A stretch of DNA of 64,000 bases from Candidatus Multivoradales bacterium (GTDB lineage Bacteria > Acidobacteriota > Thermoanaerobaculia > Multivoradales > Multivoraceae): NCBI GenBank assembly GCA_965223325.1, contig CBDCWI010000001.1, positions 1,312,001 to 1,376,000 on the forward strand, in the 5' to 3' direction. Made by a program: the position numbers and the translations under genes. Below are positions 4,354-63,256 of this stretch, in pieces. The notes under the pieces were generated by a model that had not been told where the DNA came from, did no database searches, and worked only from the letters and a program-made list of their open reading frames with translations. Each line of letters starts with the position of its first letter. Positions within the stretch are counted from its first letter, which is position 1.

Positions 4354-5334
4354 CTACTCGTAGACCTCGAGGTCGCGCGCCGTAGAGACCTGCCCGTTCC
4401 AGCGCTCCTTGACCTCTAGCACCATTTGCGCGTCGTCCTCACCCCAGTAGAGCTGGTGGTAGAGGACCAGCCGCCGCGGCTCAGCCCGACGTGCAATCTC
4501 GCCGACCTGGTGGGTCGAGGTGTGATTGGCGGCGTGGTAGCGCTGCCAGACAGCATTTCGACGACTGAAGCCGGCCACCGAGTAGGCCTCGTGAAAGAGT
4601 AGGTCACAGCCCTTGGCCGCCTCAATCAACGCCTCGCTAACGGCGGTGTCACCCGATATGACGATCGTCTTGGTTCTGCCGTCGCCGCCTGGAGGCGGAA
4701 CGGTGAACTTGTAGCCCAGTGCGAGCGGCCAGGAACCATGCGCGACTTCGATCGCCTCGACCTTGACCTCCGGTGTATCGAGGACGACACCGGCGCCCTC
4801 GACCTCATGGACGACGGTCCGGTAACCCGAACGGTTGGCGGGCTCGAGCCCGAACAGGCGCATATGAACGTCTTCTTGCCATGCGGCCTGAATGTGCTCG
4901 ACCATGCGCGCCGTACCGGGCGGTCCCCAGATCTCGAGTGGGCGCTGGCGTTCGAGCACCCATGGGGAGAAGATCAAGTCCGGCAGGCCGAGTGTGTGAT
5001 CGGAATGCAGGTGGGTCAGGAAAAGCCGGTCGAGATTCGGTGAGGCGAGCTGGGTCACCCCGCGAGCCTCGGCCGCCGCCGCGCGCCGAACGACGCCCGG
5101 ACCCGCATCGACGAGCAGCGCGCGCTCGCCAGCGATCACCGCTACCGCCGGGCCGGAACGTTCCGGATCCGCGTTGGGAGTGCCGGTACCGAGCATCACC
5201 ACACCAGCGCCGATAGTGCTCTCGCCGTCTCGTGCACCTAACGCGGAAAACGCCGACGCCGACGCCACGAGCGCCAGCAGAAGAGTTCTGCTAAAGGCAG
5301 CGCTGCAAGGGCGGAGGATCGGCATCGGCCCCAT
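4354..5334 (-). CDS. Secreted MBL-fold metallohydrolase (RNase Z/arylsulfatase-like)
   Basis: LGTGTP, LVDAG, THLHSDH, SGDT and HEAY motifs after a signal peptide. The start is placed at MGPMP; the longer ORF overlaps nthB. Confidence 0.88.
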   Translation of the reverse strand: MGPMPILRPCSAAFSRTLLLALVASASAFSALGARDGESTIGAGVVMLGTGTPNADPERSGPAVAVIAGERALLVDAGPGVVRRAAAAEARGVTQLASPNLDRLFLTHLHSDHTLGLPDLIFSPWVLERQRPLEIWGPPGTARMVEHIQAAWQEDVHMRLFGLEPANRSGYRTVVHEVEGAGVVLDTPEVKVEAIEVAHGSWPLALGYKFTVPPPGGDGRTKTIVISGDTAVSEALIEAAKGCDLLFHEAYSVAGFSRRNAVWQRYHAANHTSTHQVGEIARRAEPRRLVLYHQLYWGEDDAQMVLEVKERWNGQVSTARDLEVYE

Positions 5335-5406
5335 CGTACCCGCTGTTGGAGCCGGACTCCGCGAGTCAGTGGCCGAAGACCCCCGGGTCCCGCTACGCTC
5401 GGGTGC

Positions 5407-6084
5407 ATGGACGGAATCCACGACATGGGCGGCATGCATGGCTTCGGCGACGTACCGTTTCGCGCTGCCTACGAAAATGAACCACTGTTTCCCGAGCGCT
5501 GGCAGTCGCGCGTGTTTGCGCTGACCAACCTCGTCCTCGGCACCGGAATGGCCAACGTCGACTGTTTCCGCCACGCCGTCGAGAGGGTCGTACCCCAGCG
5601 CTACCTCGAGCACGGCTACTACGGCCGCTGGCTCGCCGGCCTCGAGCAACTGCTGGTCGAGAAAGGGGCCTTGAGCGAGCGCGAGCTCGCCGATCGCATC
5701 GCTTCCGTCATTCGAGACGGAGCACCTAGAGCGCCGGCCGGCGAAGCCCCGCGTCTCGAGTTGCGTGACCCAACCGTTTTCCGCCGGCTCGACCGGCCAC
5801 CGCGCTTTCAAACCGGAGACCGAGTGCGGACGGCCCGCGATGCTTCCCCCGGCCATACCCGCCTGCCACGCTATGCACGCGACCGGGTCGGCGAGATCCG
5901 GCGCGTATACCCCGCGTGCGTCTTCCCGGACACCAACGCCCACGATGAGGGTGAACAGCCGCAGTACCTCTACTCCGTCCAGTTTCGAGGTGAAGAGCTC
6001 TGGGGCAACGAGAGTGAACCCGGGGTAAAGGTGGCACTCGATCTCTTTGAGCCCTATCTCTCCCAGCGAGGCATCGAACAGTGA
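5407..6084 (+). CDS. nthB: Nitrile hydratase beta subunit
   Basis: [15 protein letters not shown]-terminus, [19 protein letters not shown]...DLFEPYL. Confidence 0.96.
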
Positions 6085-6701
6085 ATGAGCACCATGAGCA
6101 TGACCACGGCCACTCCCACGATCCCGAGGAGCCAGCGATCCGCGCCGAAGCAATCGAATCCCTGTTGATTGAGAAAGGGCTGGTGGCAGCACCTGCGATC
6201 GACGCCATCATCGCCCGCTACGAGAACGACATCGGCCCCATGAACGGCGCCCGTGTCGTCGCCCGGGCGTGGACCGATCCTGCTTTCAAGAAGCGCCTGC
6301 TCGAGGACGGGACCGCAGCCGTCGCCGACTTCGGCTTCGAAGGCGGCGGCCAGATGGACTGCTTGGTGGTCAAGGAGAACACGCCCAGCGTTCACAACGT
6401 CGTCTGCTGCACGCTCTGCTCCTGCTATCCGTGGGCGGTGCTCGGATTGCCGCCGGCCTGGTACAAGGACCCTGCCTATCGCTCACGGATCGTGCGCGAG
6501 CCGCGTCGGGTGCTTGCTGAAATGGGCCTGGCGATCGACCCGCAAGTGGCGGTGCGGGTCTGGGACTCGAGCGCCGAGGTGCGTTACCTGGTGCTACCCG
6601 AACGACCCGCTCTGACCGCCGATTGGAACGAAGAGCAGCTCGCCGAGATCATCACTCGCGACGCGATGATCGGCGTCGCCCATGTAACAACGGCATCGTG
6701 A
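6081..6701 (+). CDS. nthA: Nitrile hydratase alpha subunit, cobalt type
   Basis: Metal-binding [11 protein letters not shown] (Thr/Tyr indicates Co type), [19 protein letters not shown]; the start overlaps the nthB stop (GTGA). Confidence 0.97.
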
Positions 6702-24205: not shown

Positions 24206-25474
24206 ATGCCAGGCCGCCCCATAACCCGCAGTTCTCCGCGTTACCTCGCCTCCGAGGCACGGCGCATCTCGCGCAAGCTCTATCGTCGATTCACCCGTCA
24301 TGACCAGCGCCTTGCCAGGCTGCGGCCCGCCGGTAGCCCACGCGGCCGGGTCCTTCTCTCCTACGTGCTCGACCCCCTCCTTCTCCCGCTCGACCATGAC
24401 CTCCCCCACTCCCACACCCACTTCTGGGAGACGCGCGAGATCGCACGTTCGTTTCTCGACCTCGGCTGGGCCGTCGACGGAATCTCCTGGACGCATCGCA
24501 CCTTCGAACCCAACGAAGGCTATGAGGTGATCATCGACCCGCGTGCCAACCTCGAGCGCCTCGCCGAGACCCTGCCAACGGCGCAGGCCATCTTCCACTC
24601 TGACACCTGTCACTGGGCGGCGAGCAATGCGGCACAGGAAGCCCGCCAACAGGCACTCACCCAACGTCGCGGGGTACGACTCGATCGTCACAAGCTGGTG
24701 GAAGAGAACCGCGGTGCCGAAGCCGCCTCGATCGTCTGCTACCTCGGCAACGACTTCACCCGTCGCACCTTCGAGAACGCACTCCGCTCTGGGGGCTCTG
24801 GGGGCTCTGGGGGCGAGAAAGATTTCACGCCGACCGACAAACCCCTGGTGCGCATCCCGGTCTCGGTCCCCTTCGAATACGACTGGCCCGGCGATCGAGA
24901 CTGGGAACAGGCGCGGCGACGGTTTCTGTGGTTCGGCAGCGGCGGCCTGGTGCACAAGGGGCTCGACTTGGTGCTCGAAGCCTTCGCGGGCATGCCGGAG
25001 CTCGAGCTCACGGTCTGTGGACCAGTTGAGCGCGAGCGCGACTTCGAACGGCTCTACTGGCGCGAGCTCTACGAAACAGCCAACATCAACACCCTCGGCT
25101 GGATCGACTCGCGGCCTGAACACTTCGCACCGCTCGCCGCACGACACGGTGCCCTGATCTACCCGAGCTGCGCCGAGGGCGGTGGCTCGAGCGCTCTGAC
25201 CTGCATGCACGCCGGTCTCGCTCCCCTCTTGACCCCCGCCGCGAGTGTCGACCTCGAGCCCGATCGCGGCGTGCTCTTGACCGACGTGACCGTCGAGGGT
25301 CTGCGGGCGGCGGCACAGAGCTTCGCCGAGATGCCACCTGGCGAAAGCGAGCAGATGGCTCGCACCGCCTGGGAATGGGTCAGGCAACATCACACCCGCT
25401 CATTGTTCGCTTGCAACTATCGCCGCTTCGCCGGCCGGGTCACCGGCGAGCGTTCTAGCGGAGACGGCGAGTGA
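24206..25474 (+). CDS. GT-B (GT4-like) glycosyltransferase
   Basis: FLWFGSGGLVHKGLDLVLEAF and YPSCAEGGGSSALTCM signature. Confidence 0.85.
   Translation: MPGRPITRSSPRYLASEARRISRKLYRRFTRHDQRLARLRPAGSPRGRVLLSYVLDPLLLPLDHDLPHSHTHFWETREIARSFLDLGWAVDGISWTHRTFEPNEGYEVIIDPRANLERLAETLPTAQAIFHSDTCHWAASNAAQEARQQALTQRRGVRLDRHKLVEENRGAEAASIVCYLGNDFTRRTFENALRSGGSGGSGGEKDFTPTDKPLVRIPVSVPFEYDWPGDRDWEQARRRFLWFGSGGLVHKGLDLVLEAFAGMPELELTVCGPVERERDFERLYWRELYETANINTLGWIDSRPEHFAPLAARHGALIYPSCAEGGGSSALTCMHAGLAPLLTPAASVDLEPDRGVLLTDVTVEGLRAAAQSFAEMPPGESEQMARTAWEWVRQHHTRSLFACNYRRFAGRVTGERSSGDGE
24786..24814 (+). repeat. In-frame 9-bp tandem repeat (GCTCTGGGG)x3 encoding SGGSGGSGG
   Basis: Three exact copies inside the GT4 CDS. 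Confidence 0.85.
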
Positions 25475-30132: not shown

Positions 30133-30140
30133 GCGAACTT

Positions 30141-31430
30141 CTAGGCGACGGCTTCGTCAGCTAGAGCCTCGTTCTCCGGGACGGCAGCCTCCCGCTCTTC
30201 GGGCGGTGGAAGCCGCCCGAAGAGGCGAAGGACCACCATCCACGCGGCGAAGATGCAGAGCGCACCCAGAAAGAAGGGAGCTCCGGGCAGCTCGACCGGG
30301 GCACGCTCCGAAGTGAAGTAGCTGAACAAGCCGGTGGTGAAGATGAGCGGCGCAACGATGTTGGTGACACTGACGAGGGCCGTCAAAGAGCCCTGAACCC
30401 TGCCCTGCTCGGACGGCGAAACAGCACCCGCGACCATGCCGTTGATCGCCGGGCCGGCAACTCCGGCAATCGAACCCCCGACAATCACCGCGATGATCAT
30501 CCAGCCTTCAGACGCCAGGCCGTACCCGATGTAGCTGAAGACCGACAGCCCGAGGCCAAAGAGAATCGCTCGCCGTTCGCCAATGCGCGACACCACCGGC
30601 TTGACCAGAAAGCCCTGGACGATCACCGCGGTCACGCCAACCAGCGCCAGCGCCAGGCCGTTGGTCATCTCGTCCCAGCCGTAGCGATAGCCGGTGTAGA
30701 GCACCCAGACATTCTCGAGACCACGCTGCGACATCGAGATGAGAACGAAGGCCACCGCCAGGCCGGCAACGATCGGGTACTTGCGCAGGTTGCCGATACT
30801 CGACATCGGGTTGATGTTCTTCCACTCGAACTTGCCCCGCTTTTCGGGAGGCAGCGACTCGGGAAGTACAAAGAAGCCGTAGAGCCAGTTGATCATCACC
30901 AGCGCCGCCGAGACGTAGAACGGCAAACGCAACGAGATGCCACCCAGGAGACCTCCGAGCGCGGGCCCCATGATGAAGCCGAGGCCAAAGGCAACCCCAA
31001 CCAGACCGAAATTGCGCGCGCGGTTCTCGGGTGTCGATACGTCGGCGATGTAGGCATTGGCGGTCGTGATGCTGGCGCCCATGACACCGGCGATGGCACG
31101 GCCGAGAAACAGCCAGCCGATGCTCGGTGCCCAGCCCTGCAGCAGGTAGTCGATGCCGAGCCCGAAAAGGGAAACGAGAATCACCGGCCGACGCCCGAAG
31201 CGGTCCGAAAGCGCCCCGAGAATTGGTGCGAAGAAGAACTGCATCAGAGCGTAGGTCGCCGCGATGATGCCCACGTAGCGGCCAGCCAGGGCCGCATCGC
31301 CACCCATGAACTCTTTGACCAGCTCGGGCAGGATCGGAACGATGATCCCGATTCCCAGGATGTCCAGGAACAGGGTGACCAGAATGAAGGCCATCGCGGC
31401 CTGGCGGTTCTTTGCTCTCGACATTGCCAT
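30141..31430 (-). CDS. TCR/Tet family MFS efflux transporter
   Basis: [13 protein letters not shown], motif A ([12 protein letters not shown]), [10 protein letters not shown], 12 TM-like segments. Confidence 0.93.
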
Positions 31431-31543
31431 CTTGCTCGGGTGGTGAAACGGCTGAAAAACGGCGGCGCTTGCCCGACCGCCCCCTCGGGGTGCCTGAGAC
31501 TAAGGTGATCTCACCCGGCGCGCCAGCGCCGGGCAGGGACCCT

Positions 31544-31584
31544 GCTCTCTGTGGGCTCTCTGTGGGCTCTCTGTGGGCTCTCTG
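31544..31584. repeat. 11-bp tandem repeat (GCTCTCTGTGG) x3.7
   Basis: Exact copies in the divergent MFS/NHLP intergenic region. Confidence 0.85.
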
Positions 31585-31720
31585 ACGAGCCCCTCGAGGA
31601 GCTCTTTGAGCCAGGGCTCCATCCGATGGAGGGAGCGCTCCATCCAAGCGCGCCTCTCGACGCCGTCAAACGGGGTTGGCGCCCTTCCCGCAATCGCCGG
31701 CAGGCAGTTTTCTTGATCTT

Positions 31721-31747
31721 GTAAGTACCTGCAAGGAAAGGTCTTAC
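31721..31747. promoter_or_regulatory. Imperfect palindrome upstream of the sigma54-type promoter (IHF-like or activator site)
   Basis: GTAAGTACCT...AGGTCTTAC, about 50 bp upstream of the -24 box. Confidence 0.45.
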
Positions 31748-31798
31748 GCTGCACGCACCGGGGTTCCAAGGGCGCCATTCGAGGGCAGGCTCGAGAGC

Positions 31799-31814
31799 TG
31801 GCACAGCCAATGCA
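31799..31814 (+). promoter_or_regulatory. Sigma54 (RpoN) -24/-12 promoter for the NHLP precursor
   Basis: TGGCACAGCCAATGCA has GG-N10-GC spacing and is close to the consensus TGGCAC-N5-TTGCA; about 85 bp upstream of the ATG. Confidence 0.7.
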
Positions 31815-31897
31815 CTATCCCACGCTGTACGCAACGGACTCCTCCAGTCCCCACTTTCCAAACCCTTGACCAATACCCACAACACAGGAGAAACGAA

Positions 31898-32230
31898 ATG
31901 GAACTTACCCGAGGCGAAATGCAGGATCTGCTGGCCAAGTTTGCGACCGAGAGCGACAGCTACCGTGAGCGTCTGCTTGCCGACCCCAAGGAAGTCATCC
32001 AGCGCCAGTTCGGTGTCGACGTCCCCGGCGCCGTCAGCGTGAAGGTGCTCACCGAGTCGGCCGACACGGTCTACGTGGTGCTGCCGCACATCGTCGAGCA
32101 GGGTGACGAGCTCTCCGACGCCGACCTCGAGGCGGTCGCCGGCGGCCACTCGATCATCAAGGAGGCCAACTGCCAGGACTCCGATGGTGCGCTCAACACC
32201 GTCAACAACTTCGAGATGTCGCTGGTCTAG
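31898..32230 (+). CDS. NHLP (nitrile hydratase-like leader peptide) RiPP precursor
   Basis: AGGAG RBS; leader YRERLLADPKEVI...VKVLTESADTVYVVLP...ELSDADLEAVAGG; predicted 27-aa core HSIIKEANCQDSDGALNTVNNFEMSLV. Confidence 0.9.
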   Translation: MELTRGEMQDLLAKFATESDSYRERLLADPKEVIQRQFGVDVPGAVSVKVLTESADTVYVVLPHIVEQGDELSDADLEAVAGGHSIIKEANCQDSDGALNTVNNFEMSLV

Positions 32231-32240
32231 GTCGACGACT

Positions 32241-32300
32241 GAGGACGGCGGGTCGGCCTGGTCGACCCGCCACTCCTCGCCCCGTTTTCTGTTCTTTTCC
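32241..32300 (+). terminator. Intrinsic terminator after the NHLP precursor
   Basis: GAGGACGGCGGGTCG...CGACCCGCCACTCCTC stem followed by the T-rich tract GTTTTCTGTTCTTTT. Confidence 0.7.
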
Positions 32301-32507
32301 CCGCACCTTTCTTGATCTGATTTCCCCGCTTTGCTTTCTAGTTTGACTTTCTAGTCCCTTCGCTTCGGAGCCACGCTCTTCTCACCTCATCAGGTTCCGA
32401 AGCTTCTCGAGCCCGGCGCGGCCCCTCAGCCGCTCCGGGCCTTTCTCTTTTGTGCAGTTCTCGGCGAGCGAGCCCGCGCGCGCGGGGACCGGTACACTCC
32501 GCGCACG

Positions 32508-33452
32508 ATGGGAATCCCACGAGGCAGTGCGCGCCTCTTGTTTCGCGAAGCTCGAGCACGCCCCTTCTCGGGCACGGTGCTGCAGCTCGGCCGGTCTTCG
32601 ATCTACTTCACGGAGCGTGAGCTCGAGAACTGGGCCGCGCGTGATCGCTTCGCGCTCACGCCGCGTCGCGGAGAGGAACCTGCGGCACGACTCTCCCACG
32701 ACCCGCGCCTCGCGGCCCTGGGCTGTATGGACGACCGGGCATTCTTCGAGCGCCTCGGCTTCGATGCGGTCGAGAGCAGCGACATCGAAGAATGGGAGGG
32801 CGCCGATCACATCTTCGACCTCAACGACGAGCTCCCCGAACAACTCGTCGAGCGCTTCGATGCGGTGTTCGAGACCGGCACGATCGTGCAGATCTTCGAT
32901 CTTCCACGGGTGCTCTCGAACCTGGCGCGTCTGGTCAAACCCGGCGGGCGGATCATTCACTGCGCCGTCCCGTCGAACAACCACATGGACCTCGGCTTCT
33001 ACATGCTCTGCCCGAGCTTCTTCGCCGACTTCTACTCGGCCAACGGCTGGCGCATCGAGTGCCACTGGCTGTGCGAGTACTACGCCTGGTGGCACGGCGG
33101 CAAGCTGCACTCTGACCGCTGGCGGGTCTATGAGTACACCCCCGGCGCTCTCGACGCACTGAGCTATGGGCGCTACGGCGGTGCCCAGGCGGCGACTTTC
33201 ATGGTGGCGACCAGGGTCGACGGGTCGACCGGAGACATAAGACCGCAACTCGGCCACTACCAAAGAGCGTGGCAGGACTTCGAAGATCAAGGAGGCGCCG
33301 ACGACGCGGTCGCCGGGCTCACCCGTGCCGGGGCGGCCGACAACATGTCGCCCGCCATGCTTCGTTTCACAGCGCCCTGGAAGCGCGTCGCCGAAACCGT
33401 CCGGCGCCGGCTACTACCGCGCCGCATGCCCAGACTCATCGCACGCGTTTGA
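32508..33452 (+). CDS. Class I SAM-dependent methyltransferase-like protein
   Basis: VLQLG...DLN...FDAVFETGT...LVKPGGRIIH resemble Rossmann methyltransferase motifs. Confidence 0.75.
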   Translation: MGIPRGSARLLFREARARPFSGTVLQLGRSSIYFTERELENWAARDRFALTPRRGEEPAARLSHDPRLAALGCMDDRAFFERLGFDAVESSDIEEWEGADHIFDLNDELPEQLVERFDAVFETGTIVQIFDLPRVLSNLARLVKPGGRIIHCAVPSNNHMDLGFYMLCPSFFADFYSANGWRIECHWLCEYYAWWHGGKLHSDRWRVYEYTPGALDALSYGRYGGAQAATFMVATRVDGSTGDIRPQLGHYQRAWQDFEDQGGADDAVAGLTRAGAADNMSPAMLRFTAPWKRVAETVRRRLLPRRMPRLIARV

Positions 33453-34374
33453 ACCAGAACGATCCGAAGTGGCTGTCGTAGTCGGGCGCCGCAAGCGGCC
33501 GGTAGCCACCCGGGATCGAACCGTCGAGGACTGAGGCGAGGAAGGCCTCGTCGTGGTGACGAATCATCGGTGGTGCGAGCCAGATCTCGAAGTCGTTGTT
33601 GAACGCCAGGAAAGCCTGCAGCAGCATCGCCTCCGTCCAGTAGCGTGGCCACTTTCCGTCGACGACGTTCTGCTGCACCGGGTGCGGCACGTTGTAGGGG
33701 AAGTGAACGTCGTGCGCATGAATGAGAACTCCCGGTGCAAGGCGCGGCACTACTTCGAGATAGAGGTGCGGTACGTCGCCGTCGATCTTGACCACGTGCG
33801 TCGAGTCGATGAACAAGACATCGCCCTCGGCGAGGCATGAAAACCAGTCCGGTGACACGTCCTGTACCGCCTCGCCGCGAACCTCGAGGCCCGGGATGGT
33901 GCGCACCCGGTCGCGCGCGAAGGGGTCGACGGCGATCATTTCGCACTCGTGACCTTCGGCGCGGTTCCGCTCCAGCGCCTGACTCGCCCACCAGGTGGAG
34001 AGACCCGAACCAATCTCGACGAAACGTCGAGGCCTTACGCCACGCAACACGAGATAGAGGAACTGGGAGTCGTGGAGGGTGAATCCCGGGCCGTATCCCA
34101 TGCGCTTCGTCTCGTCGTAGGACGGCAACGCTTCGAGCTCGGAGCCGAAACGCCGAGCGAGATCCCCGAGGCGCTCCTTCATTGCGTCGAGCTCCCAGCG
34201 AAGACCCGGTAGTTCACTCGGCCGGTCCCATCGGGCGCGGTTCCTCAGAACTTCGCTACGAGTTGGCAGCGGCGAGTAGTAGTCGGACGTCTTTGCCAGA
34301 TTGAAGCCGAGTGCTTCAAAGGCACGCACGCCCACGCGCAGGCCTGCCCGGTAGGCGCGACGAAGTGGATTCAC
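33436..34374 (-). CDS. Class I SAM-dependent methyltransferase (Methyltransf_24-like)
   Basis: [45 protein letters not shown]; the GTG start overlaps the upstream stop. Confidence 0.88.
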
Positions 34375-35441
34375 GGGTTGGCGTCGGCAGCTGAGGCGGC
34401 GGCGTTCGTCCAACAGAGCGCGCGGTCGAGCCGACCCTCGTCCATCAGCTCTTCGAGCCGTTTGAGCCGCACATAGCGACTGCCCTCGAACTGCTCGAGC
34501 GTCAAGCCGATCTCCTGATACGCGGTATGGAGGCGTTTTGCAGCTCGCTCCGGATCCCACTGTGGGTCGAAGGCTGGAACAGCCACCCCGAGGGCATCGC
34601 AGTCGACACGGTAGGTGCGCTGGTCACCGCTGGCGCCTTCGGCGATTTCGACCTCGGTCCCTGGAACCGCCGCCGCGACAATGTCTGCCAACTCGCGGAT
34701 GCGGTAGTTGTGCTCCGTGCGGCCAACGTTGAAGGCGCGATCGAAGACCGCCTCACGATCTGCCTCGACGACCGCCAGGAAAGCCCGCGAAATGTCCTCG
34801 ACGTGCACGATCGGCCGCCAGGCCATGCCGTCGGAAAGCAGTCGCACGCGCCCGGTGGTATGTGCCCAGGCGACCAGGTTGTTGAGCACCAGGTCAAGCC
34901 GCAGGAGAGGCGCGAGACCGTAGGCGGTGGCGTTCCTGAGGTATGTGGGGGTAAAGCTCGGGTTGGCGAGCTCGGAGAGCGCCTGTTCGAGGCGCACCTT
35001 CTCGACTCCGTAGGGCGTGACGGGGTTGAGCTCGGCCGACTCGTCGAGAAAATCGTCGCCGGCAGCGCCGTAGGAACTGCATGACGACGAGAACACAAAA
35101 CGCGGCACTCCCGCCCCGCGCGCCAGCTCCGCGAGCCGTAGCGAGGCGCTGTAGTTGATCTCCGTGGTGAGCTCGGCGTTGAGGTTGCCGAGCGGATCGT
35201 TCGACAGTGCTGCCAGGTGAACGACCGCATCGAAGCCCTCGAGATCACCAACCTCGACCTGGCGGATGTCTTTCGGGGTTCCTTCGCGGCCCGGGCCGGC
35301 TTCGTCGGCGGCGCCCTCGGGAAGGGCGCAGTCGACGAACCATCCGGCGTCGAGCCCTGTGACGTCGTGGCCGGCGCGTTGGAAGAGCGGCACAAGAACG
35401 CTGCCGATATAACCGGTGTGACCGGTGACGAGAACTCGCAT
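34371..35441 (-). CDS. NAD-dependent nucleotide-sugar epimerase/dehydratase
   Basis: [44 protein letters not shown]. Confidence 0.92.
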
Positions 35442-35447
35442 GACGTT

Positions 35448-36653
35448 TCAGTTTCCTTGGACGGTGCCGAAGTTTGCCGCGACAATGGCCAGGTCGCTGC
35501 CGTCGATCGCGAGATCGTCGTTGAGGTCGGCACGCTGGTCCCAACGCGAACCGTTGAGATCGGCACCGAAGGCCAGGCCGAGCAGGATGAGGTCGATGCC
35601 GTCAACGCGACCGTCGCCATCGACATCGCCTCCGAACCCACCACCGACAGCGTCGGTACGGAACTCGGTGATCGCGCGGTCGAAAACGTTGGCCGGGGTG
35701 TCCAGGTCAGCGGCGCGCAGGCTGACGTTGACCGTACCGCTCCACGGTACCGGCGGCTCGTGCTGAATGGTGACATTGCGCGTCGTACCAACGACGGTGC
35801 TCTCGACGATCTGCCCGTCGATCCGCAGCTCGACCGTCGCCATGTCGATGCCGGCGCCGAAGTCCCAGATCTGCACGGTCACCGGAGTGATGTCAGGTAC
35901 CTCGACGGCCTTGTTTTCCGGGCTGATAACGGACGGCACTGGCGGCACGTTGTCGAGACCCTGGAGAACGTCGGCGAAGGTGCGGGCCATCAGGTCGTAG
36001 CCCTGCGGGTTGGGATGGCCAACAGCATCTTCGCTGGCGGGAACCGGGTCGTACAGCGACTGTAGATCGCCCCGGGTAATCCACACCTCGTAGTTATCCA
36101 CCAGGTCGCGCCCTTCGCCACCGGCAATCTCGCGGATCCCACGCACGACGCGGTCGGTGAGCACATTGTCGCTGTCTTGCCGGGCGCTCTCGCGGCGCGG
36201 AATCGGGCTGGCGTGCACGACTGCCATTCCGCGGTTGGTCGCGCGGTTCGCGAGCTCACGCAAGTTGAAGATCGTCGACTCGAGAGACAGCCCCGAACCC
36301 CTCTGCACGTCGTTGGTTCCCAACATCAGAAGGAGCACATCGCCGTCGGCATCGGCGAGGACCGAGTTGATGACCTCGAGCGCCTCTGCCGTGTTGTCAC
36401 CTTCCGTCCCGTAGTTGAGGACGGTGGCGTTGGTGAGCAGCGCTTCGAGCCGTCTCGGATAACCGGCGTCCGGACCGAGCGGTACCGAGTCGCCAGTGCC
36501 GGCCGTGATGCTGTCGCCAAAGGCGACGTAGACCGTCTGCGCGCTCAGGGTAGCACCGCAAACCAGGCCGACGAGGAGCGCCACCATCACGTACCGAACG
36601 GGCAGCGAGCGTTGGGCTCCTGGTAGCAAGCGACAGATGGCGGTAGCGTTCAT
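35448..36653 (-). CDS. Secreted SGNH/GDSL hydrolase with C-terminal dockerin-like domain
   Basis: FGDSIT, LGTND, DAVGHPNPQGY; C-terminal GDVDGDGRVDGIDL...ADLNDDLAIDGSDL paired Ca-binding loops. Confidence 0.88.
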   Translation of the reverse strand: MNATAICRLLPGAQRSLPVRYVMVALLVGLVCGATLSAQTVYVAFGDSITAGTGDSVPLGPDAGYPRRLEALLTNATVLNYGTEGDNTAEALEVINSVLADADGDVLLLMLGTNDVQRGSGLSLESTIFNLRELANRATNRGMAVVHASPIPRRESARQDSDNVLTDRVVRGIREIAGGEGRDLVDNYEVWITRGDLQSLYDPVPASEDAVGHPNPQGYDLMARTFADVLQGLDNVPPVPSVISPENKAVEVPDITPVTVQIWDFGAGIDMATVELRIDGQIVESTVVGTTRNVTIQHEPPVPWSGTVNVSLRAADLDTPANVFDRAITEFRTDAVGGGFGGDVDGDGRVDGIDLILLGLAFGADLNGSRWDQRADLNDDLAIDGSDLAIVAANFGTVQGN

Positions 36654-36808
36654 GATCTCGGTTGTCACAGTGCGCCCCGTCCGCAGGAAAACCTGAGGAG
36701 GGCATGAGACGCTCCTCGAGGGCTCTCTTCCAGTGCTCTCCTGAAGGCCGTTCGAAACGGCCGCTGGGCGATGGGCGCAACGCTTCAGATTCTACCGTTG
36801 TCGAACTC

Positions 36809-47026: not shown

Positions 47027-49057
47027 ATGAAGTCTCGCATCCACCTGTCCACACTCCTAGCATTCTCCATTGTTCTTCCGGGCTCGCTCCTCCTCGCACA
47101 AGCAGGTGCCCCGGGCGGTGAATGGCCCACCTATCACGGCGACCTCGGCGCCACCCAGTACTCGGCCCTCGACCAGATCGACGCGTCGAACTTCGATGAG
47201 CTCGAGGTCGCGTGGACCTGGACACCTCCCGACGGCGCAGTCGCCGAGGGCAAACGGGCGCTGACAACTTTCGGCTACAAGTCGACGCCGCTGGTGGTCG
47301 ACGGCCGCATGTACATCAACACGTCGCTGGGTTTCGTCGTCGCGCTCGATCCGGTGACTGGAAAGGAACACTGGGCCTACGACACCAAGGCCTACGAAGC
47401 CGGGCGGCCCACCAACCTCGGTTTCAACAGCCGCGGGGTTGGCTACTGGACCGACGGCAAGCAAGAGCGGGTCTTTCACCCCGGCAACGACGGTTACCTC
47501 TGGGCGATCGACGCGCAAACCGGCGAACCCGTCGGCGGCTTCGGGACCAACGGCAAGGTCGACCTCATCGCCACCTACCGTCGCGAGGTGCCGCGTCGCC
47601 TGGTGACCTTCATGTCGTCACCTCTCGTGGTGGGCAACGTCGTAGTGGTGGGCTCGTCGATCTCCGACGGCCCAACCCGCAAAGAAATGCCACCCGGTGA
47701 CGTGCGCGGCTACGACACGCGCACCGGCAACCTCGTATGGACCTTCCACAACCCGCCCGCTCGAGGAGAAGTCGGCTACGACACCTGGGAAGACGGTTCT
47801 GCCGAGTACACCGGCAATGCCAACGTTTGGACCAACATGTCGGCCGACGCGGACGCCGGCCTGATCTACCTACCCTTCGGCACGCCCACCAACGACTGGT
47901 ACGGCGGCCATCGCAAAGGCGACAACCTGTTTGCCGAGTCGATCGTGTGTATCAAGGCAGCCACCGGCGAGTACGTCTGGCACTTCCAGCTCGTCCACCA
48001 CGGCCTCTGGGACTACGACATTCCGGCCGCCCCGACCCTTCTCGACGTCGAAATCGACGGCAAGCCGCGCAAGATCGTTGCAGTGGTCTCCAAGCAGGGC
48101 TTCAACTACGTCTTCGATCGCCTGACCGGTGAGCCGGTCTGGCCAATCGAAGAACGCCCGGTCCCTCAGAGTCGCGTACCGGGTGAACAAACTTCAGCGA
48201 CCCAGCCTTTCCCGACCAAACCGCCGGCGTTCGAGTCTCAGGGCATCAGCGATGACACCGTCATCGACTTCACCCCCGAGATGCGCGCCGCGGCCATGGA
48301 GACCCTCTCGCACTACGAGTACGGGCCGATCTTCACTCCGCCAATCGTCGCCGGCTCAGAAAAGAACGGCAAGAAACTAAACGGTACCGTGCAGCATCCG
48401 GGCTGGGCGGGTGGCGCCAACTGGTGGGGCGCAGCGGTCGACCCAGAAAACGGCCGGCTCTATGTGCCGTCGTTCTCGAGCCCGATCGTCGTCGCATTAG
48501 ACAAGCCCGATCCGGCGCGCTCGAACTTCAACTACGTGCGTGGGCAACCCGGCCAGGAAGGGATGCCCGAGGGGCATACCGCAACCCGCGGCTCGATCCC
48601 CGGCCCGCACGGCCTGCCGATCATCAAACCACCCTACGGGCGCATCACCGCCTACGAAATGTCCAAGGGTGAGATTCTCTGGCAAGTTCCTCACGGCGAA
48701 GGGATCCGCCAGAAGATCATCGACCTCGGAGCACCCGACCCCGGCCCCGTCGGTAGCAACAGTGGCAGCGGCCCGCTGCTCACCGAAACACTCCTGATCG
48801 TTGGCAAAGGCGCCGGCGGACGCGGTGCCCGCAGCGGCAGCGGCGACCAATCGCAGCTCTTCGCCTACGACAAGGCGAGCGGCGAGCTCATCGCAACTCT
48901 CGACATCGACGCGCCGCCAACCGGAACGCCGATGACCTACATGGCCAATGGCCGGCAGTACATCGCCTTCGCCGTCGGCGGCTTGAACGCCGCCAAGCTG
49001 GTGGCGGTGGCGCTACCGGCGAGCGAGGGCGAAACGCCGGGAGCAGGCGGGCCCTAG
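47027..49057 (+). CDS. PQQ-dependent (quinoprotein glucose-type) dehydrogenase
   Basis: Signal peptide, EWPTYHGD, YSALDQI, HFQLVHHGLWDYD, TQPFPTKPP, PMTYMANGRQY. Confidence 0.92.
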   Translation: MKSRIHLSTLLAFSIVLPGSLLLAQAGAPGGEWPTYHGDLGATQYSALDQIDASNFDELEVAWTWTPPDGAVAEGKRALTTFGYKSTPLVVDGRMYINTSLGFVVALDPVTGKEHWAYDTKAYEAGRPTNLGFNSRGVGYWTDGKQERVFHPGNDGYLWAIDAQTGEPVGGFGTNGKVDLIATYRREVPRRLVTFMSSPLVVGNVVVVGSSISDGPTRKEMPPGDVRGYDTRTGNLVWTFHNPPARGEVGYDTWEDGSAEYTGNANVWTNMSADADAGLIYLPFGTPTNDWYGGHRKGDNLFAESIVCIKAATGEYVWHFQLVHHGLWDYDIPAAPTLLDVEIDGKPRKIVAVVSKQGFNYVFDRLTGEPVWPIEERPVPQSRVPGEQTSATQPFPTKPPAFESQGISDDTVIDFTPEMRAAAMETLSHYEYGPIFTPPIVAGSEKNGKKLNGTVQHPGWAGGANWWGAAVDPENGRLYVPSFSSPIVVALDKPDPARSNFNYVRGQPGQEGMPEGHTATRGSIPGPHGLPIIKPPYGRITAYEMSKGEILWQVPHGEGIRQKIIDLGAPDPGPVGSNSGSGPLLTETLLIVGKGAGGRGARSGSGDQSQLFAYDKASGELIATLDIDAPPTGTPMTYMANGRQYIAFAVGGLNAAKLVAVALPASEGETPGAGGP

Positions 49058-58048: not shown

Positions 58049-60400
58049 TCAGAAGCTGAGTTTGAGTGAAAGACTGATGTCACGACCGGGAAGTGGCACG
58101 TTGTCCTTCAGATACGAGGTGTGCCGGCGGGCTTCTTCGTTGGTGAGATTGCGTGCCCGCAGCAACAGGTCGAAGACCTGGTTGCCAACGAACACCCGGT
58201 GGCCGACGCTGGCGTTCACCATAGAGTAGCCGTCGGTCGGCGTTTCGTTCGGCGCCAGGTTGGTCGCGTCGTCCGTCCAGCGTAGCTCGACCATCCCATT
58301 CCAGCGCGTGCTATGGAGGTGCAGGCCGCTCCACGCTCGCCGCGGAGGAATGCGCGGCAGGTTCTGATTGCCGTCGTCGAGAGTCGCCCGCACGTAGTCG
58401 CCGCCGAGACTGAGGTGAAGGTCGGCGCCGTTCTCCCACTCGACTAGCTCGACCCGCCCGGTGAGCTCCACACCTTCGAACGTCGCGTCGTTCTGGGTAA
58501 AGAGCACCACCGGTAGACCGTCCTCCTCGAGGCCGGTCGGCGCTTCGTAGATGTAGTCATCGAACCGGTTGTGAAACAGCGTGACCTCGCCCTGTACTAC
58601 GCCCTGGGTTCGTCGCAGGGAGAGATCGAGACCCAGGCTGGTCTCTTCGCCGAGCTCGGAGTTGCCGACTTCGAAGGTCTGGGTCGCCAGGTGCGGACCG
58701 TCGGAAAACAGCTCCTCGGTGATCGGTAGCTTGACCGAGCGCGCCAGCGAACTCGCCAGTGACCAGCCCTCAGACAGCTTCCACACCACGCCCACGGAGG
58801 AACTGAGGCCGCTGTGTGAGACGTCTCCTCGACCCACTGCCTCGAGGTCCTGATCTTCGTAGCGCGCACCGAACTGCCAGGTGACCGGGCCAGCCTCGAT
58901 CTCCTGAAAGGTGAACAACGACATGCGCTTCGCCGTGCTGGCTGGAATGAAGGCTTCCGCGCCGATGGCCTCGAGCTCACGCATCGTGAACTGCAACCCG
59001 ACCGAACCCGACGATCTGGCCCTTTCCTTCTGAACCAGTTCCACCCGTCCGTCAAACGATTCGTTGAAGAAGCGAGTTCCGATCTCGTCGCCTTCGAGCT
59101 CGACGTGCTCGTAGTCGGTCACGCCGATCCGCCCACGCCATCCCCGGAAGATCGAGAACGGCTGGTTGATCTCAGAACGCAGGTCGACCCGTCGCTGCCG
59201 CATGTCGATGCGCACGGGCGCTTCCTCGTCCTCTTCGCCATCGTGATCGTCGTCATCATCATGATCATCGTCGTGGTCATCGTCGTGATCGTCCTCGTCC
59301 CCGTGGTGATGCGCGCCCTCACCCGGTATCCCGTAGTTGGTGTCGAAGCCCGCCACTGAAATACCGAGGAAGCCCCGGTCCCCGAAAAAGCGGGTCACGC
59401 CCAGGCGGCCGCTTTCGGTCTCCAGGTCGCTGTTGGGCAAACGATCGAGCGGTTCCTCGTCGCCGTCAATGTCGGCCGAACCAGGAATGTCATAGTCCCC
59501 GGCATCTCGGGCGCTCACCCCGAAGTGATAGGCCCAGTCGCCAGACCCGCCTTCGAGGAGGAGAGCGGCTGCCTTTTCGTCTGCCACGGAGGCGGCGCGC
59601 ACTTCAACACTGCCCGAGATTGGCTCGATCGCGCGATAGGTCGGAATCCTCTCGTCGACGACATTGACCGCACCACCGATGGCACTCGAACCGTAGAGCA
59701 GCGTCGATGGCCCGCGGAGAACCTCGATACTGTCGGCGAGCATGGTGTCGGAGGCCACCGCGTGGTCGGCACTGACCGCAGAGGCGTCTCCTATGTCGAC
59801 GCCGCCCTCGAGAACGCGCACCCGGTCGCCCGACTGCCCGCGAACGATCGGACGGCTGGCACCCTGACCGAAAGACGTGGAGCTCACCCCGGCGAGTCCG
59901 TCGAGTGTCTCGCCGAGCGTCGCTTGGCGTTTGAGGTCGAGCTCGAGCCCGACCAGCGAGTCGATCGGTTGCGCCATCTCCAGCGCCAGGCGCGCCTCAC
60001 CAGCACTGACGACCACCTCGTCCTTGTGGCTGGTGACCCCAAGGGCAATGTCGACCTCTGCGCTCTCCCCAGCGACCACCTCGACACGAGCAACGCCGGC
60101 CCCGCCCGGGCCGCTCGCCTGCAGCAAATAGGAACCCGTGGGAACGTCGGCGAACGAAAAGGTGCCGTCGGCAGCGACGGCCACCTGGCGACCGAGCTCA
60201 ACCAGGCGAACTTCGACGAGGGCAATACCTTCGCCAGATTCGTGGCGGTCAGCATGCCGGTCATGAACGACCCGCCCTTCGATCGCACCGAGCTCCTCGG
60301 CACTGAGCGACCCGGGAACGACCGAAAGGATGAGAAGCAGCTGGCAAGCGCCAAACAGACTCCGGATCAACTGTCTCGCATTCCAATACATCATCATCAT
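58049..60400 (-). CDS. TonB-dependent receptor, ZnuD-like, with His/Asp-rich loop
   Basis: Plug SRPIVRG...IEVLRGPSTLLYGSSAIGGAVNV, GPHLAT, HHHGDEDDHDDDH loop, terminal Phe. Confidence 0.93.
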   Translation of the reverse strand: MMMMYWNARQLIRSLFGACQLLLILSVVPGSLSAEELGAIEGRVVHDRHADRHESGEGIALVEVRLVELGRQVAVAADGTFSFADVPTGSYLLQASGPGGAGVARVEVVAGESAEVDIALGVTSHKDEVVVSAGEARLALEMAQPIDSLVGLELDLKRQATLGETLDGLAGVSSTSFGQGASRPIVRGQSGDRVRVLEGGVDIGDASAVSADHAVASDTMLADSIEVLRGPSTLLYGSSAIGGAVNVVDERIPTYRAIEPISGSVEVRAASVADEKAAALLLEGGSGDWAYHFGVSARDAGDYDIPGSADIDGDEEPLDRLPNSDLETESGRLGVTRFFGDRGFLGISVAGFDTNYGIPGEGAHHHGDEDDHDDDHDDDHDDDDDHDGEEDEEAPVRIDMRQRRVDLRSEINQPFSIFRGWRGRIGVTDYEHVELEGDEIGTRFFNESFDGRVELVQKERARSSGSVGLQFTMRELEAIGAEAFIPASTAKRMSLFTFQEIEAGPVTWQFGARYEDQDLEAVGRGDVSHSGLSSSVGVVWKLSEGWSLASSLARSVKLPITEELFSDGPHLATQTFEVGNSELGEETSLGLDLSLRRTQGVVQGEVTLFHNRFDDYIYEAPTGLEEDGLPVVLFTQNDATFEGVELTGRVELVEWENGADLHLSLGGDYVRATLDDGNQNLPRIPPRRAWSGLHLHSTRWNGMVELRWTDDATNLAPNETPTDGYSMVNASVGHRVFVGNQVFDLLLRARNLTNEEARRHTSYLKDNVPLPGRDISLSLKLSF

Positions 60401-61096: not shown

Positions 61097-63136
61097 TCAA
61101 CGATCTGGGGGAAGCGTCAGTGCGACCAGCTCGGGCGGCGACCCCGCCACGGTGATCGCAACGTACTGACGCCCGTCGACGCGATAGGTCATTGGCGTGC
61201 CGATCGGGCGTGCCGGTAGCTCGACCTCTCCGACGACCGCGCCAGTCGCCTTGTCGCGTGCGACCAGAGCCCCGCGGCCGCTTGCTCGGCCACCCGGTGC
61301 CTCACCCTGGACGAGCAGCGTGCTGGTGACCAGAGGCCCGGTCACGCCGTCGCCTCCCAGAGGACCGAGCTCGAGCCCCGCCAGCGCTTCGTGGTTGCGG
61401 ATGTGATCACCATTGCCGGTCGGAACAGTCCAGAGAATCTCACCTCGCGCCAGATCAATCGCCGTCATGCGGGAGTACGGCGGCTTGAGAAGCGGCAGGC
61501 CCGCGGGGCCCCGCGGGCCACCCGCCGAGCGATGGGTATAGCGCACCGTGCCACCTTCGTCGGGGTCGGGCGAATAGAACTCGACGCCGCTCAGTGAATT
61601 GCGCGAGGGAACGAAGAGCACACCGGCTCGAGGATCGACGCCGGCCCCCCACCAGTTCGCGCCGCCACCGATTCCGGGGCGCTGGAGCGTGGCCCTCTTT
61701 CCTCCGGGAGTCTCGAGGATGGGTGGCGTAAACAGCGGCCCGAGGCGGTACTCGGCGGCAATCTCGAGCGCCGCCTGGCGCAGCTGGGGCGTGAAGTCGA
61801 TCAGGTCGTCCTCGCTGATTCCCTGGCTTTCGAAGGGCGGCGGCCGGGTCGGGAAGGGCTGGGTTGCCGACAGCTTCTCGCCGGGAATGTCGGAAGCGGC
61901 TACCGGGCGTTCTTCGATCGGCCAGATCGGTTCGCCGGTGGCACGATGGAACACGTAGGTGAAACCCTGCTTCGAAACCTGTGCCAGGAGCGGCACCGTC
62001 GCGCCGTCGATCTCGACGTCGACGAGGTTCGGCGCTGCCGGGAAGTCGTAGTCCCAGACCCCGTGATGAACCGCCTGGAAGTGCCACACCACCTCACCGG
62101 TTTCGGCGCGCACTGCGACGACACTCTCGGCGTAGAGGTTGTCGCCCGGGCGATGACCGCCGTAGAAGTCGTTGGTGGGCGTTCCAATCGGTAGATAGAC
62201 CAGCCCGAGCTCGGGATCGGCGCTCATCATCGTCCACACATTCGTGTTGCCGCTATAGCGCCAGGATTCCTCCTCCCAGGTTTCGTTGCCGGGCTCACCG
62301 GCCTGCGGAATGGTGTGGAAGGTCCACCGCAGTGCGCCGGTCCGCGCATCCCAGCCGCGTACGTCGCCGGGTGCCGCTTCCTTGGTGATCCGCCGATCGG
62401 CGATCGACGAACCGGTGACGATCACGTCGCCCACCACCAGTGGCGGCGAAGAGCTCGAGTAGGGCAAGGCGTTCAGGTAGTCGCGCTCGCTGCGCGCCGC
62501 GCCCCGAATGCCTGCGGTGAGATCGACGCGCCCGTTGTCGCCGAAGCCGAGGACGGGTCGACCGGTCGCGGCATCCACCGCCACCAACCAACCGTCGCCG
62601 GTTCCCCAGTAGATGCGACGGTCGCGTTCACCGTCACTCCAGGTCGCCACCCCGCGGTGGTTCCACAACAGACTCATCGTCGGAGTGCCGCTTTCGTAGG
62701 CCCGCGGGTCGAAGACCCATTCGGTCTCACCGGTCACCGCGTCGATGGCGGCGCCCTGGTAGAGCGGTGTGGCGAGGAAGAGCGTGCCGTCAATCGCCAG
62801 CGGAGTCGCCTTGAGACTGCTCAACCGCGGGGCAAGTCCGCCACGCCAGAGGTCGGGGTCGGCCGCATCGAGCTCCTCGAACAGCACCGACGACGGCCCC
62901 GTCCACGACCCTCCGGCCACTTCCCGCGACAGGAGCGCGTCCACCGAGCGCCAGCGCCAGGCGACTTCGAGGCGCGCGAAGTTCGATGCGTCGATGTCGG
63001 CCAGCGGTGAGTACTTGCTCGACGCCAGGTCGCCGCCATAGTGATGCCACTCACCCTCGGCCGATGGCTGGGCAGCCGCCGGCGCGGCGATCGACAGGGT
63101 GGCCAGTAGAACAGAGGTCAAGCTGTAGCGTGGCAT
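61097..63136 (-). CDS. PQQ-dependent (quinoprotein glucose-type) dehydrogenase, paralogue of 47027..49057
   Basis: EWHHYGGD, HFQAVHHGVWDYD, TQPFPTRPP, PMTYRVDGRQY. Confidence 0.92.
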   Translation of the reverse strand: MPRYSLTSVLLATLSIAAPAAAQPSAEGEWHHYGGDLASSKYSPLADIDASNFARLEVAWRWRSVDALLSREVAGGSWTGPSSVLFEELDAADPDLWRGGLAPRLSSLKATPLAIDGTLFLATPLYQGAAIDAVTGETEWVFDPRAYESGTPTMSLLWNHRGVATWSDGERDRRIYWGTGDGWLVAVDAATGRPVLGFGDNGRVDLTAGIRGAARSERDYLNALPYSSSSPPLVVGDVIVTGSSIADRRITKEAAPGDVRGWDARTGALRWTFHTIPQAGEPGNETWEEESWRYSGNTNVWTMMSADPELGLVYLPIGTPTNDFYGGHRPGDNLYAESVVAVRAETGEVVWHFQAVHHGVWDYDFPAAPNLVDVEIDGATVPLLAQVSKQGFTYVFHRATGEPIWPIEERPVAASDIPGEKLSATQPFPTRPPPFESQGISEDDLIDFTPQLRQAALEIAAEYRLGPLFTPPILETPGGKRATLQRPGIGGGANWWGAGVDPRAGVLFVPSRNSLSGVEFYSPDPDEGGTVRYTHRSAGGPRGPAGLPLLKPPYSRMTAIDLARGEILWTVPTGNGDHIRNHEALAGLELGPLGGDGVTGPLVTSTLLVQGEAPGGRASGRGALVARDKATGAVVGEVELPARPIGTPMTYRVDGRQYVAITVAGSPPELVALTLPPDR

Positions 63137-63256
63137 GCCACGGACGCTAGCACTCGCTGGCGGGCAACGCGGTCGGCGCCACGCTTCCTGATAAGGCCGG
63201 CTGACAGGGGGGTGCCTCGTGGGGGCCGGCTTTGCCGCAGCCAAAGCCCAACCGGG

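Follow-up and report, generated by a model that had tools for sequence, protein, structure and literature searches.

At positions 31898..32230 of its plus strand, the 64,000-nucleotide stretch of Candidatus Multivoradales DNA analysed here (the window) carries a gene for a 110-residue precursor of a peptide that is made on ribosomes and modified after translation (RiPP) with a leader of the NHLP family. Judged from sequence comparisons, and with a probability of about 0.85, it is an additional copy, functional and unlinked, of the precursor gene for a class II (LanM-type) lanthipeptide, and its product would be matured in trans. This reading starts from observations on the gene and its leader family, its paralogues, the content of a distant gene cluster, shared cis-elements, synteny and selection. 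The first-pass annotation of the window had presented the gene as an orphan and as the candidate of a new glyco- or methyl-RiPP class, and had also named maturation in trans and action as an unmodified peptide.

Precursor paralogues and the distant LanM cluster

The precursor gene is made up as follows.

31898..32230, plus strand: precursor gene ('lanA3', the third unlinked lanA copy), ATG at 31898, TAG stop at 32228-32230, 110 aa
31886..31890, plus strand: Shine–Dalgarno sequence AGGAG, 7 nt ahead of the ATG
31898-32146, plus strand: leader, codons 1-83, NHLP fold, terminal stretch ELSDADLEAVAGG
32147-32227, plus strand: core, codons 84-110, HSIIKEANCQDSDGALNTVNNFEMSLV, 27 aa, one Cys

The description of the gene in the first-pass annotation (110 aa, NHLP leader, cleavage motif and a core with one Cys) stands. 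The NCBIfam model TIGR03793 matches residues 4-83 at 68.0 bits (cut-off 50.9, E 4.7e-19) over model positions 1-77 of 77, the same locus scoring 68.1 bits in the genome-wide search, and ELSDADLEAVAGG, residues 71-83, forms a Gly-Gly type cleavage motif at the end of the leader. The Pfam model NHase_alpha matches the precursor as well (41 bits, cut-off 27.2). An AlphaFold2 model built with 39 homologues has three helices (residues 5-18, 20-28 and 30-38), pLDDT values of 79-92 across residues 1-50 and a disordered core. The best Foldseek matches of the leader model in the PDB are the solved NHLP leaders 9cjx (DprE2, E 0.39) and 8tb1 (E 0.63), with nitrile hydratase alpha chains ranking next, all matches being weak (E > 0.001).

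The window lies on the first (C1) of the two contigs (C1, C2) of a 6.69 Mb genome that is 98.2% complete, and a genome-wide profile search found four NHLP precursors above the TIGR03793 cut-off in it. The three other copies (A1, A2 and A4) and the cluster around two of them are listed below; strand is not stated for these entries.

C1:1758258-1758590: A1, in tandem with A2
C1:1758851-1759183: A2, in tandem with A1; core identical to that of the window copy
C2:3680650-3680979: A4, core identical to that of the window copy
C1:1759313-1762576: LanM, 1087 aa, DUF4135 and LANC_like domains, TIGR03897 at 509.6 bits (cut-off 304)
Distant cluster, after LanM: two OEP/TolC-like proteins
Distant cluster: NHLP-type HlyD, TIGR03794 at 277.1 bits (cut-off 156.2)
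C1:1768158-1770383: C39-peptidase ABC subunit of the distant cluster, TIGR03796 at 1094.7 bits (cut-off 853.3)
Distant cluster: second ABC subunit with an N-terminal FHA domain, TIGR03797 at 849 bits (cut-off 709.4)
Distant cluster, downstream of A1/A2: DUF7005/HATPase protein
Distant cluster, upstream of A1/A2: sigma-54 activator (C1:1756614-1757981), cNMP-binding/FHA protein and FHA-GAF-SpoIIE phosphatase

The cores of the window copy, A2 and A4 are identical and that of A1 differs at 2 of 27 residues, while the last 24 leader residues before the Gly-Gly differ at a single position between the window copy and the others. A4 sits among housekeeping genes (HrpB, TPR, Mfd and SurA-like). The A1/A2 cluster lies on the same contig as the window copy, 414 kb away; it is headed by the sigma-54 activator gene, and its LanM gene starts 130 nt after A2. 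All three NHLP transport components score above their equivalog cut-offs and all are encoded in this cluster, none in the window. The genome has a single LanM and a single C39 domain, both in the distant cluster. Thus 'orphan' describes the gene within the window but not within the genome, and the genome-wide search for a PCAT transporter that the first-pass annotation had proposed leads to the C39-peptidase ABC exporter of the cluster. Its suggestion of maturation in trans is supported: a complete LanM/PCAT cluster with two precursors of its own is found on the same contig.

The LanM of the cluster retains the columns that do not vary in an alignment of 32 family members, among them D291/H293, K313/R315, D388/N393/D405, H883, C946 and C991-C992-G993. 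C946 and C991-C992-G993 of the cyclase domain are presumably zinc ligands, and we take the C-C-G to mark ProcM-like enzymes. As a separate observation, the cluster (C1:1753375-1775389; loci L007 and L008) is rich in regulators resembling phospho-threonine and partner-switch systems, namely the FHA-GAF-SpoIIE phosphatase, the cNMP-binding/FHA protein, an FHA-fused ABC2 subunit and a DUF7005-HATPase_c_2 protein, most of which are found again at related loci (the cNMP/FHA protein at 34 of 78, SpoIIE at 20 of 78).

These related loci, 78 in number and taken from other genomes, code for precursor relatives; they were searched by tblastn with the proteins of the window genome. Represented among them are Thermoanaerobaculia (including Ca. 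Multivoraceae), Vicinamibacterales, Verrucomicrobiales and one Aquimonas. At a coverage of at least 40%, LanM was found at 48 loci, the activator at 50, OEP at 37, HlyD at 31 and the cNMP/FHA protein at 34. A LanM high-scoring pair at any coverage occurs at 52 of the 78 and, among the 48 loci flanked by 5 kb or more on either side, at 35. Homologues of seven genes that flank the precursor in the window (MFS, two methyltransferases, two SDRs, GT2 and GDSL) were found at 0 of 78 loci (E ≤ 1e-8, any coverage). The first-pass annotation had proposed testing the conservation of the neighbourhood; the test goes against it, the homologues adjoining LanM and never relatives of the window neighbours. 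It had also held that homologues beside a known maturase would speak against a new class, and because they do adjoin one, the new-class reading is rejected.

Co-occurrence at the level of genomes agrees. All seven relatives with a precursor match at E ≤ 1e-10 have a LanM above cut-off, and three further genomes have LanM without this precursor family. Weak precursor matches (E 1e-4 to 1e-6) in 12 relatives, which cover residues ~18-90 only and are assumed to be nitrile hydratase alpha subunits, were excluded from this count. Further, unlinked copies are a trait of the family: 11 of the 48 well-flanked loci have no cluster protein within 5-10 kb and 6 of the 9 precursor copies in genome G010 form three orphan pairs. 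In this genome (Ca. Multivoraceae, L048-L051), the remaining three copies form a triple beside LanM, and each unlinked pair has a palindrome of the kind described below ~198 nt upstream of its first gene, without a strict match to TGGCAC-N5-NTGC. Clustering of precursor and synthetase is usual but not obligatory for class II; for the window gene, the LanM is present in the genome and lies beside precursors of the same family, the window copy itself being unclustered with it.

Conservation within the precursor points in the same direction. Ten leader residues (E71, L72, S73, D74, L77, E78, V80, A81, G82, G83) do not vary among 39 aligned homologues, nor do Cys9 and Thr18 of the core. The similarity runs on into the core, which is atypical for the TIGR03793 family, where it usually ends at the Gly-Gly. 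A recognisable GG site delimits the core in 101 homologues; 97 of these cores contain a single Cys, and in 86 an [NS]-T-[VTAH] motif follows at a distance of 7-11 residues. That the peptide acts unmodified, as the first-pass annotation had allowed, is unlikely in view of these counts and of the co-occurrence with LanM.

Could a different enzyme encoded elsewhere, such as a YcaO azole-former or a radical-SAM epimerase of the proteusin type, be the maturase? NHLP leaders do serve several maturase types, according to PMC2887384. However, YcaO (PF02624) had 0 matches in this nearly complete genome, in a search whose control found YcaO in 5 of 14 reference genomes. The 20 radical-SAM matches of the genome lie neither in the window nor within 20 kb of any precursor copy; the nearest is 23 kb past the end of the cluster, and none was found among the open reading frames (ORFs) of the distant cluster that were scanned. 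The core lacks runs of Cys, Ser or Thr, and the conserved context is adjacency to LanM. We therefore regard another maturase as very improbable.

Upstream elements and the proposed route to the peptide

The following elements flank the precursor gene of the window.

31627..31642, no strand: palindrome TGGAGGGAGCGCTCCA (TGGAG-N6-CTCCA), 172 nt upstream of the promoter-like element; putative activator site
31799..31813, plus strand: sigma-54-type promoter-like element TGGCAC-N5-ATGC (-24 GG / -12 GC), 99 nt upstream of the ATG
32234..32298, plus strand: post-stop hairpin (32234-32286) and U-rich tract (32285-32298), from RNA folding

The promoter-like element also occurs 88 nt upstream of A1 and 107 nt upstream of A4, and at all three loci the palindrome lies 148-172 nt further upstream. 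Counting both strands, the genome has 104 TGGCAC-N5-NTGC sites; it has 16 TGGAG-N6-CTCCA palindromes, three of them upstream of precursor loci. The combination of a palindrome and a sigma-54-like site within 350 nt is found only at the window copy, A1 and A4 in the 6.69 Mb. A2 lacks this pair of elements and probably rides on the A1 transcript. The genome encodes rpoN (C2:194239-195987), and a simple promoter scan of 31300-32700 found no sigma-70-like promoter.

The related loci (1.23 Mb) contain 47 promoter-like sites and 63 palindromes, of which 39 and 52, respectively, are located no more than 500 nt upstream of a precursor gene, including at loci without LanM. The palindrome consensus there is aTGGAGCc..GGCTCCAt, placed 76-120 nt before the promoter-like element. 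A candidate for its binding partner is the activator at the head of the distant cluster, whose gene ends 41 nt before the A1 palindrome; from this position and from the co-occurrence of the two, we infer that the activator binds the palindrome. Its PDB matches cover the AAA+ domain only, and its C-terminus looks Fis-like.

Downstream of the stop codon, the RNA fold of 32228-32310 reaches -34.2 kcal/mol (z -2.49) and is equalled by 1 of 200 shuffles. Together with the U-rich tract, the hairpin is a probable end of the transcript ahead of the next gene at 32508. A simple terminator scan of 31300-32700 gave two terminator-like sites, not above shuffles and neither 3' of the precursor gene; the hairpin was not called because its T-run does not adjoin the stem.

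On this basis the chemistry, the position of the ring, the identity of the activator and the route of export can be proposed. Transcription would start at the gene's own sigma-54 promoter and would be induced by the enhancer-binding protein of the distant cluster, bound to the TGGAG-N6-CTCCA palindrome common to the three precursor loci; the transcript is predicted to begin about 10-14 nt downstream of 31813. The structured NHLP leader would then dock on the sole LanM (C1:1759313-1762576). Candidate ring residues in the core are Cys9 together with Ser2, Ser12, Thr18 and Ser25; the ring is assigned to Cys9 and Thr18 because both are conserved across homologues. LanM would dehydrate the invariant Thr18, and possibly Ser2, Ser12 and Ser25, and add the thiol of the invariant Cys9 to give one methyllanthionine ring (Cys9-Abu18). 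Finally, the NHLP-type exporter, composed of the C39-peptidase ABC subunit, the second ABC subunit, HlyD and the two TolC-like proteins, would cut after Gly-Gly83 and secrete a 27-residue peptide.

Several points weigh against this scheme. Of the four leaders, that of the window copy has diverged most, with 14-15 non-synonymous codon differences in 83 against each other copy, compared with 8-9 among the other three leaders; its recognition by LanM is therefore a proposal. A ring in which the Cys lies N-terminal to the Thr is of the rarer direction, for which there is precedent. The -12 element of the window copy reads ATGC, the consensus being TTGC. Among 101 scorable precursor genes, the strict promoter pattern is found upstream of 42, the palindrome upstream of 47 and both upstream of 22; many tandem downstream copies are without these elements. 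Further, Pfam detects no helix-turn-helix in the activator, even at E ≤ 1.

The divergence of the leader and the distance from the enzymes would also suit a silent or decaying spare copy, a duplicate that has lost either its expression or its acceptance by LanM. Selection among the copies speaks against it. The paralogues are old, with a synonymous divergence (dS) of 0.44-0.66, and under purifying selection, with a ratio of non-synonymous to synonymous divergence (dN/dS) of about 0.1-0.2; the similarity of the four loci at the DNA level is limited to the coding region and the Shine–Dalgarno stretch. Within the latter stretch, AGGAGAAACGAAATGGAACTTACC is common to the window copy and the C2 copy. 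Core dN is 0 among the three identical-core copies (core dS 0.28-0.60). For the window copy in particular, the core has dN = 0 despite a dS of 0.28-0.37 against A4 and A2, overall dN/dS is about 0.15-0.2, and the reading frame, Shine–Dalgarno sequence, GG site and core are all intact. The composite of sigma-54 site and palindrome, unique to precursor loci, has been kept, and so has the end of the leader before the Gly-Gly, with its single differing position. A silent copy is accordingly improbable, if less so than another maturase.

The sugar locus and other genes of the window

The neighbours of the precursor on which the first-pass annotation had built its proposal are the following, besides two SDR epimerases and one GT2.

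24206-25474, strand not stated: 'GT4', sub-threshold (25.9 bits, cut-off 27)
30141..31430, minus strand: divergent Tet-family-like MFS transporter, Pfam MFS_1 at 190 bits, NF012174 at 334.6 bits, below its cut-off of 475
32508-33452, plus strand: 'methyltransferase' adjoining the precursor, best Pfam methyltransferase match 21.8 bits, below the cut-off of 30
33436-34560, minus strand: methyltransferase, passes Methyltransf_24

The Pfam scan covered 55 distinct ORFs of the window (20 at E ≤ 0.01, 34 at E ≤ 1e-4 and one more). None of the 55 matched YcaO, LanM (DUF4135/LANC_like), radical SAM, ATP-grasp or Peptidase_C39, which agrees with the earlier statement that the 64 kb hold no maturase, as does the location of the genome's sole LanM and sole C39 domain outside the window. 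The assignments of the neighbours hold in part: the two SDR epimerases and the GT2 near the precursor and one methyltransferase are confirmed, whereas the methyltransferase at 32508 and the 'GT4' remain sub-threshold and the MFS transporter falls below the Tet cut-off. The product of 32508-33452 had no NCBIfam match either. It is well conserved all the same: 4 of the 5 related genomes that were searched encode it at 55-70% identity.

Comparison with relatives separates the precursor from these genes. In a genome of the same genus (G001, L113), GT2-SDR1-MT1-SDR2 are contiguous, without MFS or precursor genes between them, and a gap of 19 nt separates the end of SDR1 from MT1 where the window genome has the MFS and precursor genes. 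In a second relative (G008), GT2 adjoins MT1. A search of the G001 genome found neither the precursor nor LanM, and about 844 kb separate its MFS orthologue (70% identity) from the sugar locus. Because the locus is contiguous in G001 and the MFS orthologue lies elsewhere, the ~2.4 kb block of MFS and precursor genes (30133-32507) is taken to interrupt a conserved polysaccharide locus in the window genome. The GC content of the block is about 2 points lower than that of its flanks (0.627-0.634 versus 0.653-0.657). DNA alignment of the four precursor loci revealed neither duplication boundaries nor traces of mobile elements, and the block edges showed no repeats and no mobile-element genes. In the proposed history, the MFS and precursor genes would have become inserted into a separate polysaccharide locus. 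The sugar and methyl-transfer genes beside the precursor are then unrelated neighbours, and the MFS gene, without a homologue at the 78 related loci, is no conserved partner of the precursor.

The headline proposal of the first-pass annotation was that the peptide is modified by the products of the GT2/GT4-like, SDR and methyltransferase genes around it and exported by the divergent MFS transporter. In its favour are the adjacency of these genes and a core in which Ser, Thr, Asn and Asp abound, with a Cys that might in principle be glycosylated. It does not fit with LanM at 52 of 78 related loci and a homologue of any of the seven neighbours at none, nor with a sugar locus that is contiguous in G001 without precursor or LanM and that keeps GT2 beside MT1 in G008. 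The MFS orthologue of G001 sits elsewhere, and identical-core copies are found beside LanM or amid Mfd, HrpB, TPR and SurA-like genes. Further, the precursor gene has its own promoter-like element and post-stop hairpin. We consider a glyco- or methyl-RiPP highly unlikely, and maturation by the distant LanM remains the preferred reading.

Some other features of the window may be recorded. In this Acidobacteriota genome, the gene at 35448-36668 (minus strand) codes for a GDSL-family esterase whose C-terminal domain is a dockerin of type I (27.7 bits, cut-off 22.9); its orthologues adjoin the sugar locus in G008 and G010. Situated 25 kb upstream of the precursor gene, at 5407-6701 (plus strand), is a genuine nitrile hydratase operon with a beta subunit at 5407-6084 (NHase_beta_N 105 bits, NHase_beta_C 107 bits) and an alpha subunit at 6081-6701 (NHase_alpha 283 bits); this operon accounts for two sub-threshold TIGR03793 matches in the genome-wide search. 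The long minus-strand ORF at 4354-6192, which overlaps the beta gene, has probably been drawn too far at its 5' end. Two beta-propeller proteins of the pyrroloquinoline quinone (PQQ)-dependent dehydrogenase type are encoded at 47027-49057 (plus strand, 638 bits) and 61097-63244 (minus strand, 621 bits), and a TonB-dependent receptor lies near them at 58049-60400.

Relation to known systems and meaning

The definition of the family already covered NHLP leaders in company with LanM and precursors whose genes are not clustered with that of the synthetase (PMC2887384), and the same source describes unlinked copies in Nif11/NHLP systems. For DprM and OspM, PMC12537861 describes how a LanM recognises NHLP leaders, and a lanthipeptide catalogue lists five class II families with NHLP leaders (PMC7268733). 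The combination of an NHLP precursor with LanM, and unlinked precursors, are thus known, and the gene does not represent a new RiPP class. The strings RGEMQDLL, RGEVQDLL, NTVTQ and LNTVI were not in the searched part of one supplementary file of PMC7268733, a result that covers that part and does not show their absence from the catalogue. Three features of the family look unusual and were not found in the literature searched: the conservation of its core across phyla, its many genes with identical cores, and the dedicated sigma-54 activator with its palindrome, together with the FHA/PP2C/cNMP regulators. Nor did that literature contain a sigma-54-controlled LanM/NHLP family.

The closest system is Haft's NHLP bacteriocin system (OspA/OspM and DprE/DprM pairs), which shares a leader above cut-off, the Gly-Gly end, a LanM beside paralogues and an exporter of HlyD, C39-ABC and ABC2. 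There, however, the core is variable, whereas here it is conserved across phyla and has one Cys, and so at most one ring. The present cluster also differs in having no radical-SAM or other tailoring enzymes, in being headed by a sigma-54 activator together with FHA/SpoIIE/cNMP regulators, and in lying 414 kb from the window copy.

Prochlorosins (ProcA/ProcM) resemble the present system in that one LanM serves several precursors, some of them scattered in the genome (PMC2887384), and in a long structured leader with Gly-Gly cleavage. In contrast, they have Nif11-type leaders, hypervariable cores and cyanobacterial hosts, while the present family has NHLP leaders, three of four cores identical and hosts among Acidobacteriota and Verrucomicrobiota. 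In the cyclase domain of the present LanM, C-C-G stands in place of the C-H-G of LicM2, which corresponds to a 'ProcM-like three-Cys zinc site'.

For the ring itself, the LanM products of the cinnamycin and duramycin type offer a parallel: they contain methyllanthionine with the Cys N-terminal to the dehydrated Thr, as proposed here for Cys9-Thr18. They differ in their short, unrelated leaders, several rings, lysinoalanine and hydroxy-Asp; no relationship in sequence was detected, P0001 having no DurB-like match. Glycocins and other S- or O-glycosylated RiPPs are alike in being small secreted peptides with Cys and Ser/Thr beside a GT2 gene, a likeness confined to this genome, but the precursor has no conserved pairing with a glycosyltransferase (0 of 78 loci), and the GT2 locus is kept without the precursor in G001 and G008. 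Azole-type (TOMM) NHLP peptides require a YcaO, of which this genome has none, and proteusins of the polytheonamide type have a clustered radical-SAM enzyme, of which none lies near any copy.

A broader proposal, which we put forward tentatively and hold to be possible rather than probable, is that the family forms a one-ring lanthipeptide system that spans phyla. Its members occur among Acidobacteriota (Thermoanaerobaculia, Vicinamibacterales) and Verrucomicrobiota, and in one Aquimonas. Such a system would combine a conserved core, dispersed genes with identical cores, a dedicated sigma-54 activator with a previously unreported palindrome (TGGAGCC-N2-GGCTCCA), regulators of the FHA, PP2C, cNMP and kinase types, and an FHA-fused exporter.

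For the annotation of RiPPs, the case advocates a search of the whole genome whenever a precursor looks like an 'orphan', ahead of any claim to a new class. For RiPP biology, the conserved sigma-54 promoter and palindrome tie the unlinked precursors to one regulon and offer a handle on how these are coordinated with the synthetase. If the broader proposal is true, the conservation of the core and the dosage of its genes would point to a conserved physiological target, with the peptide acting as a signal, a morphogen or a surface-active peptide, and not to an antibiotic arms race.

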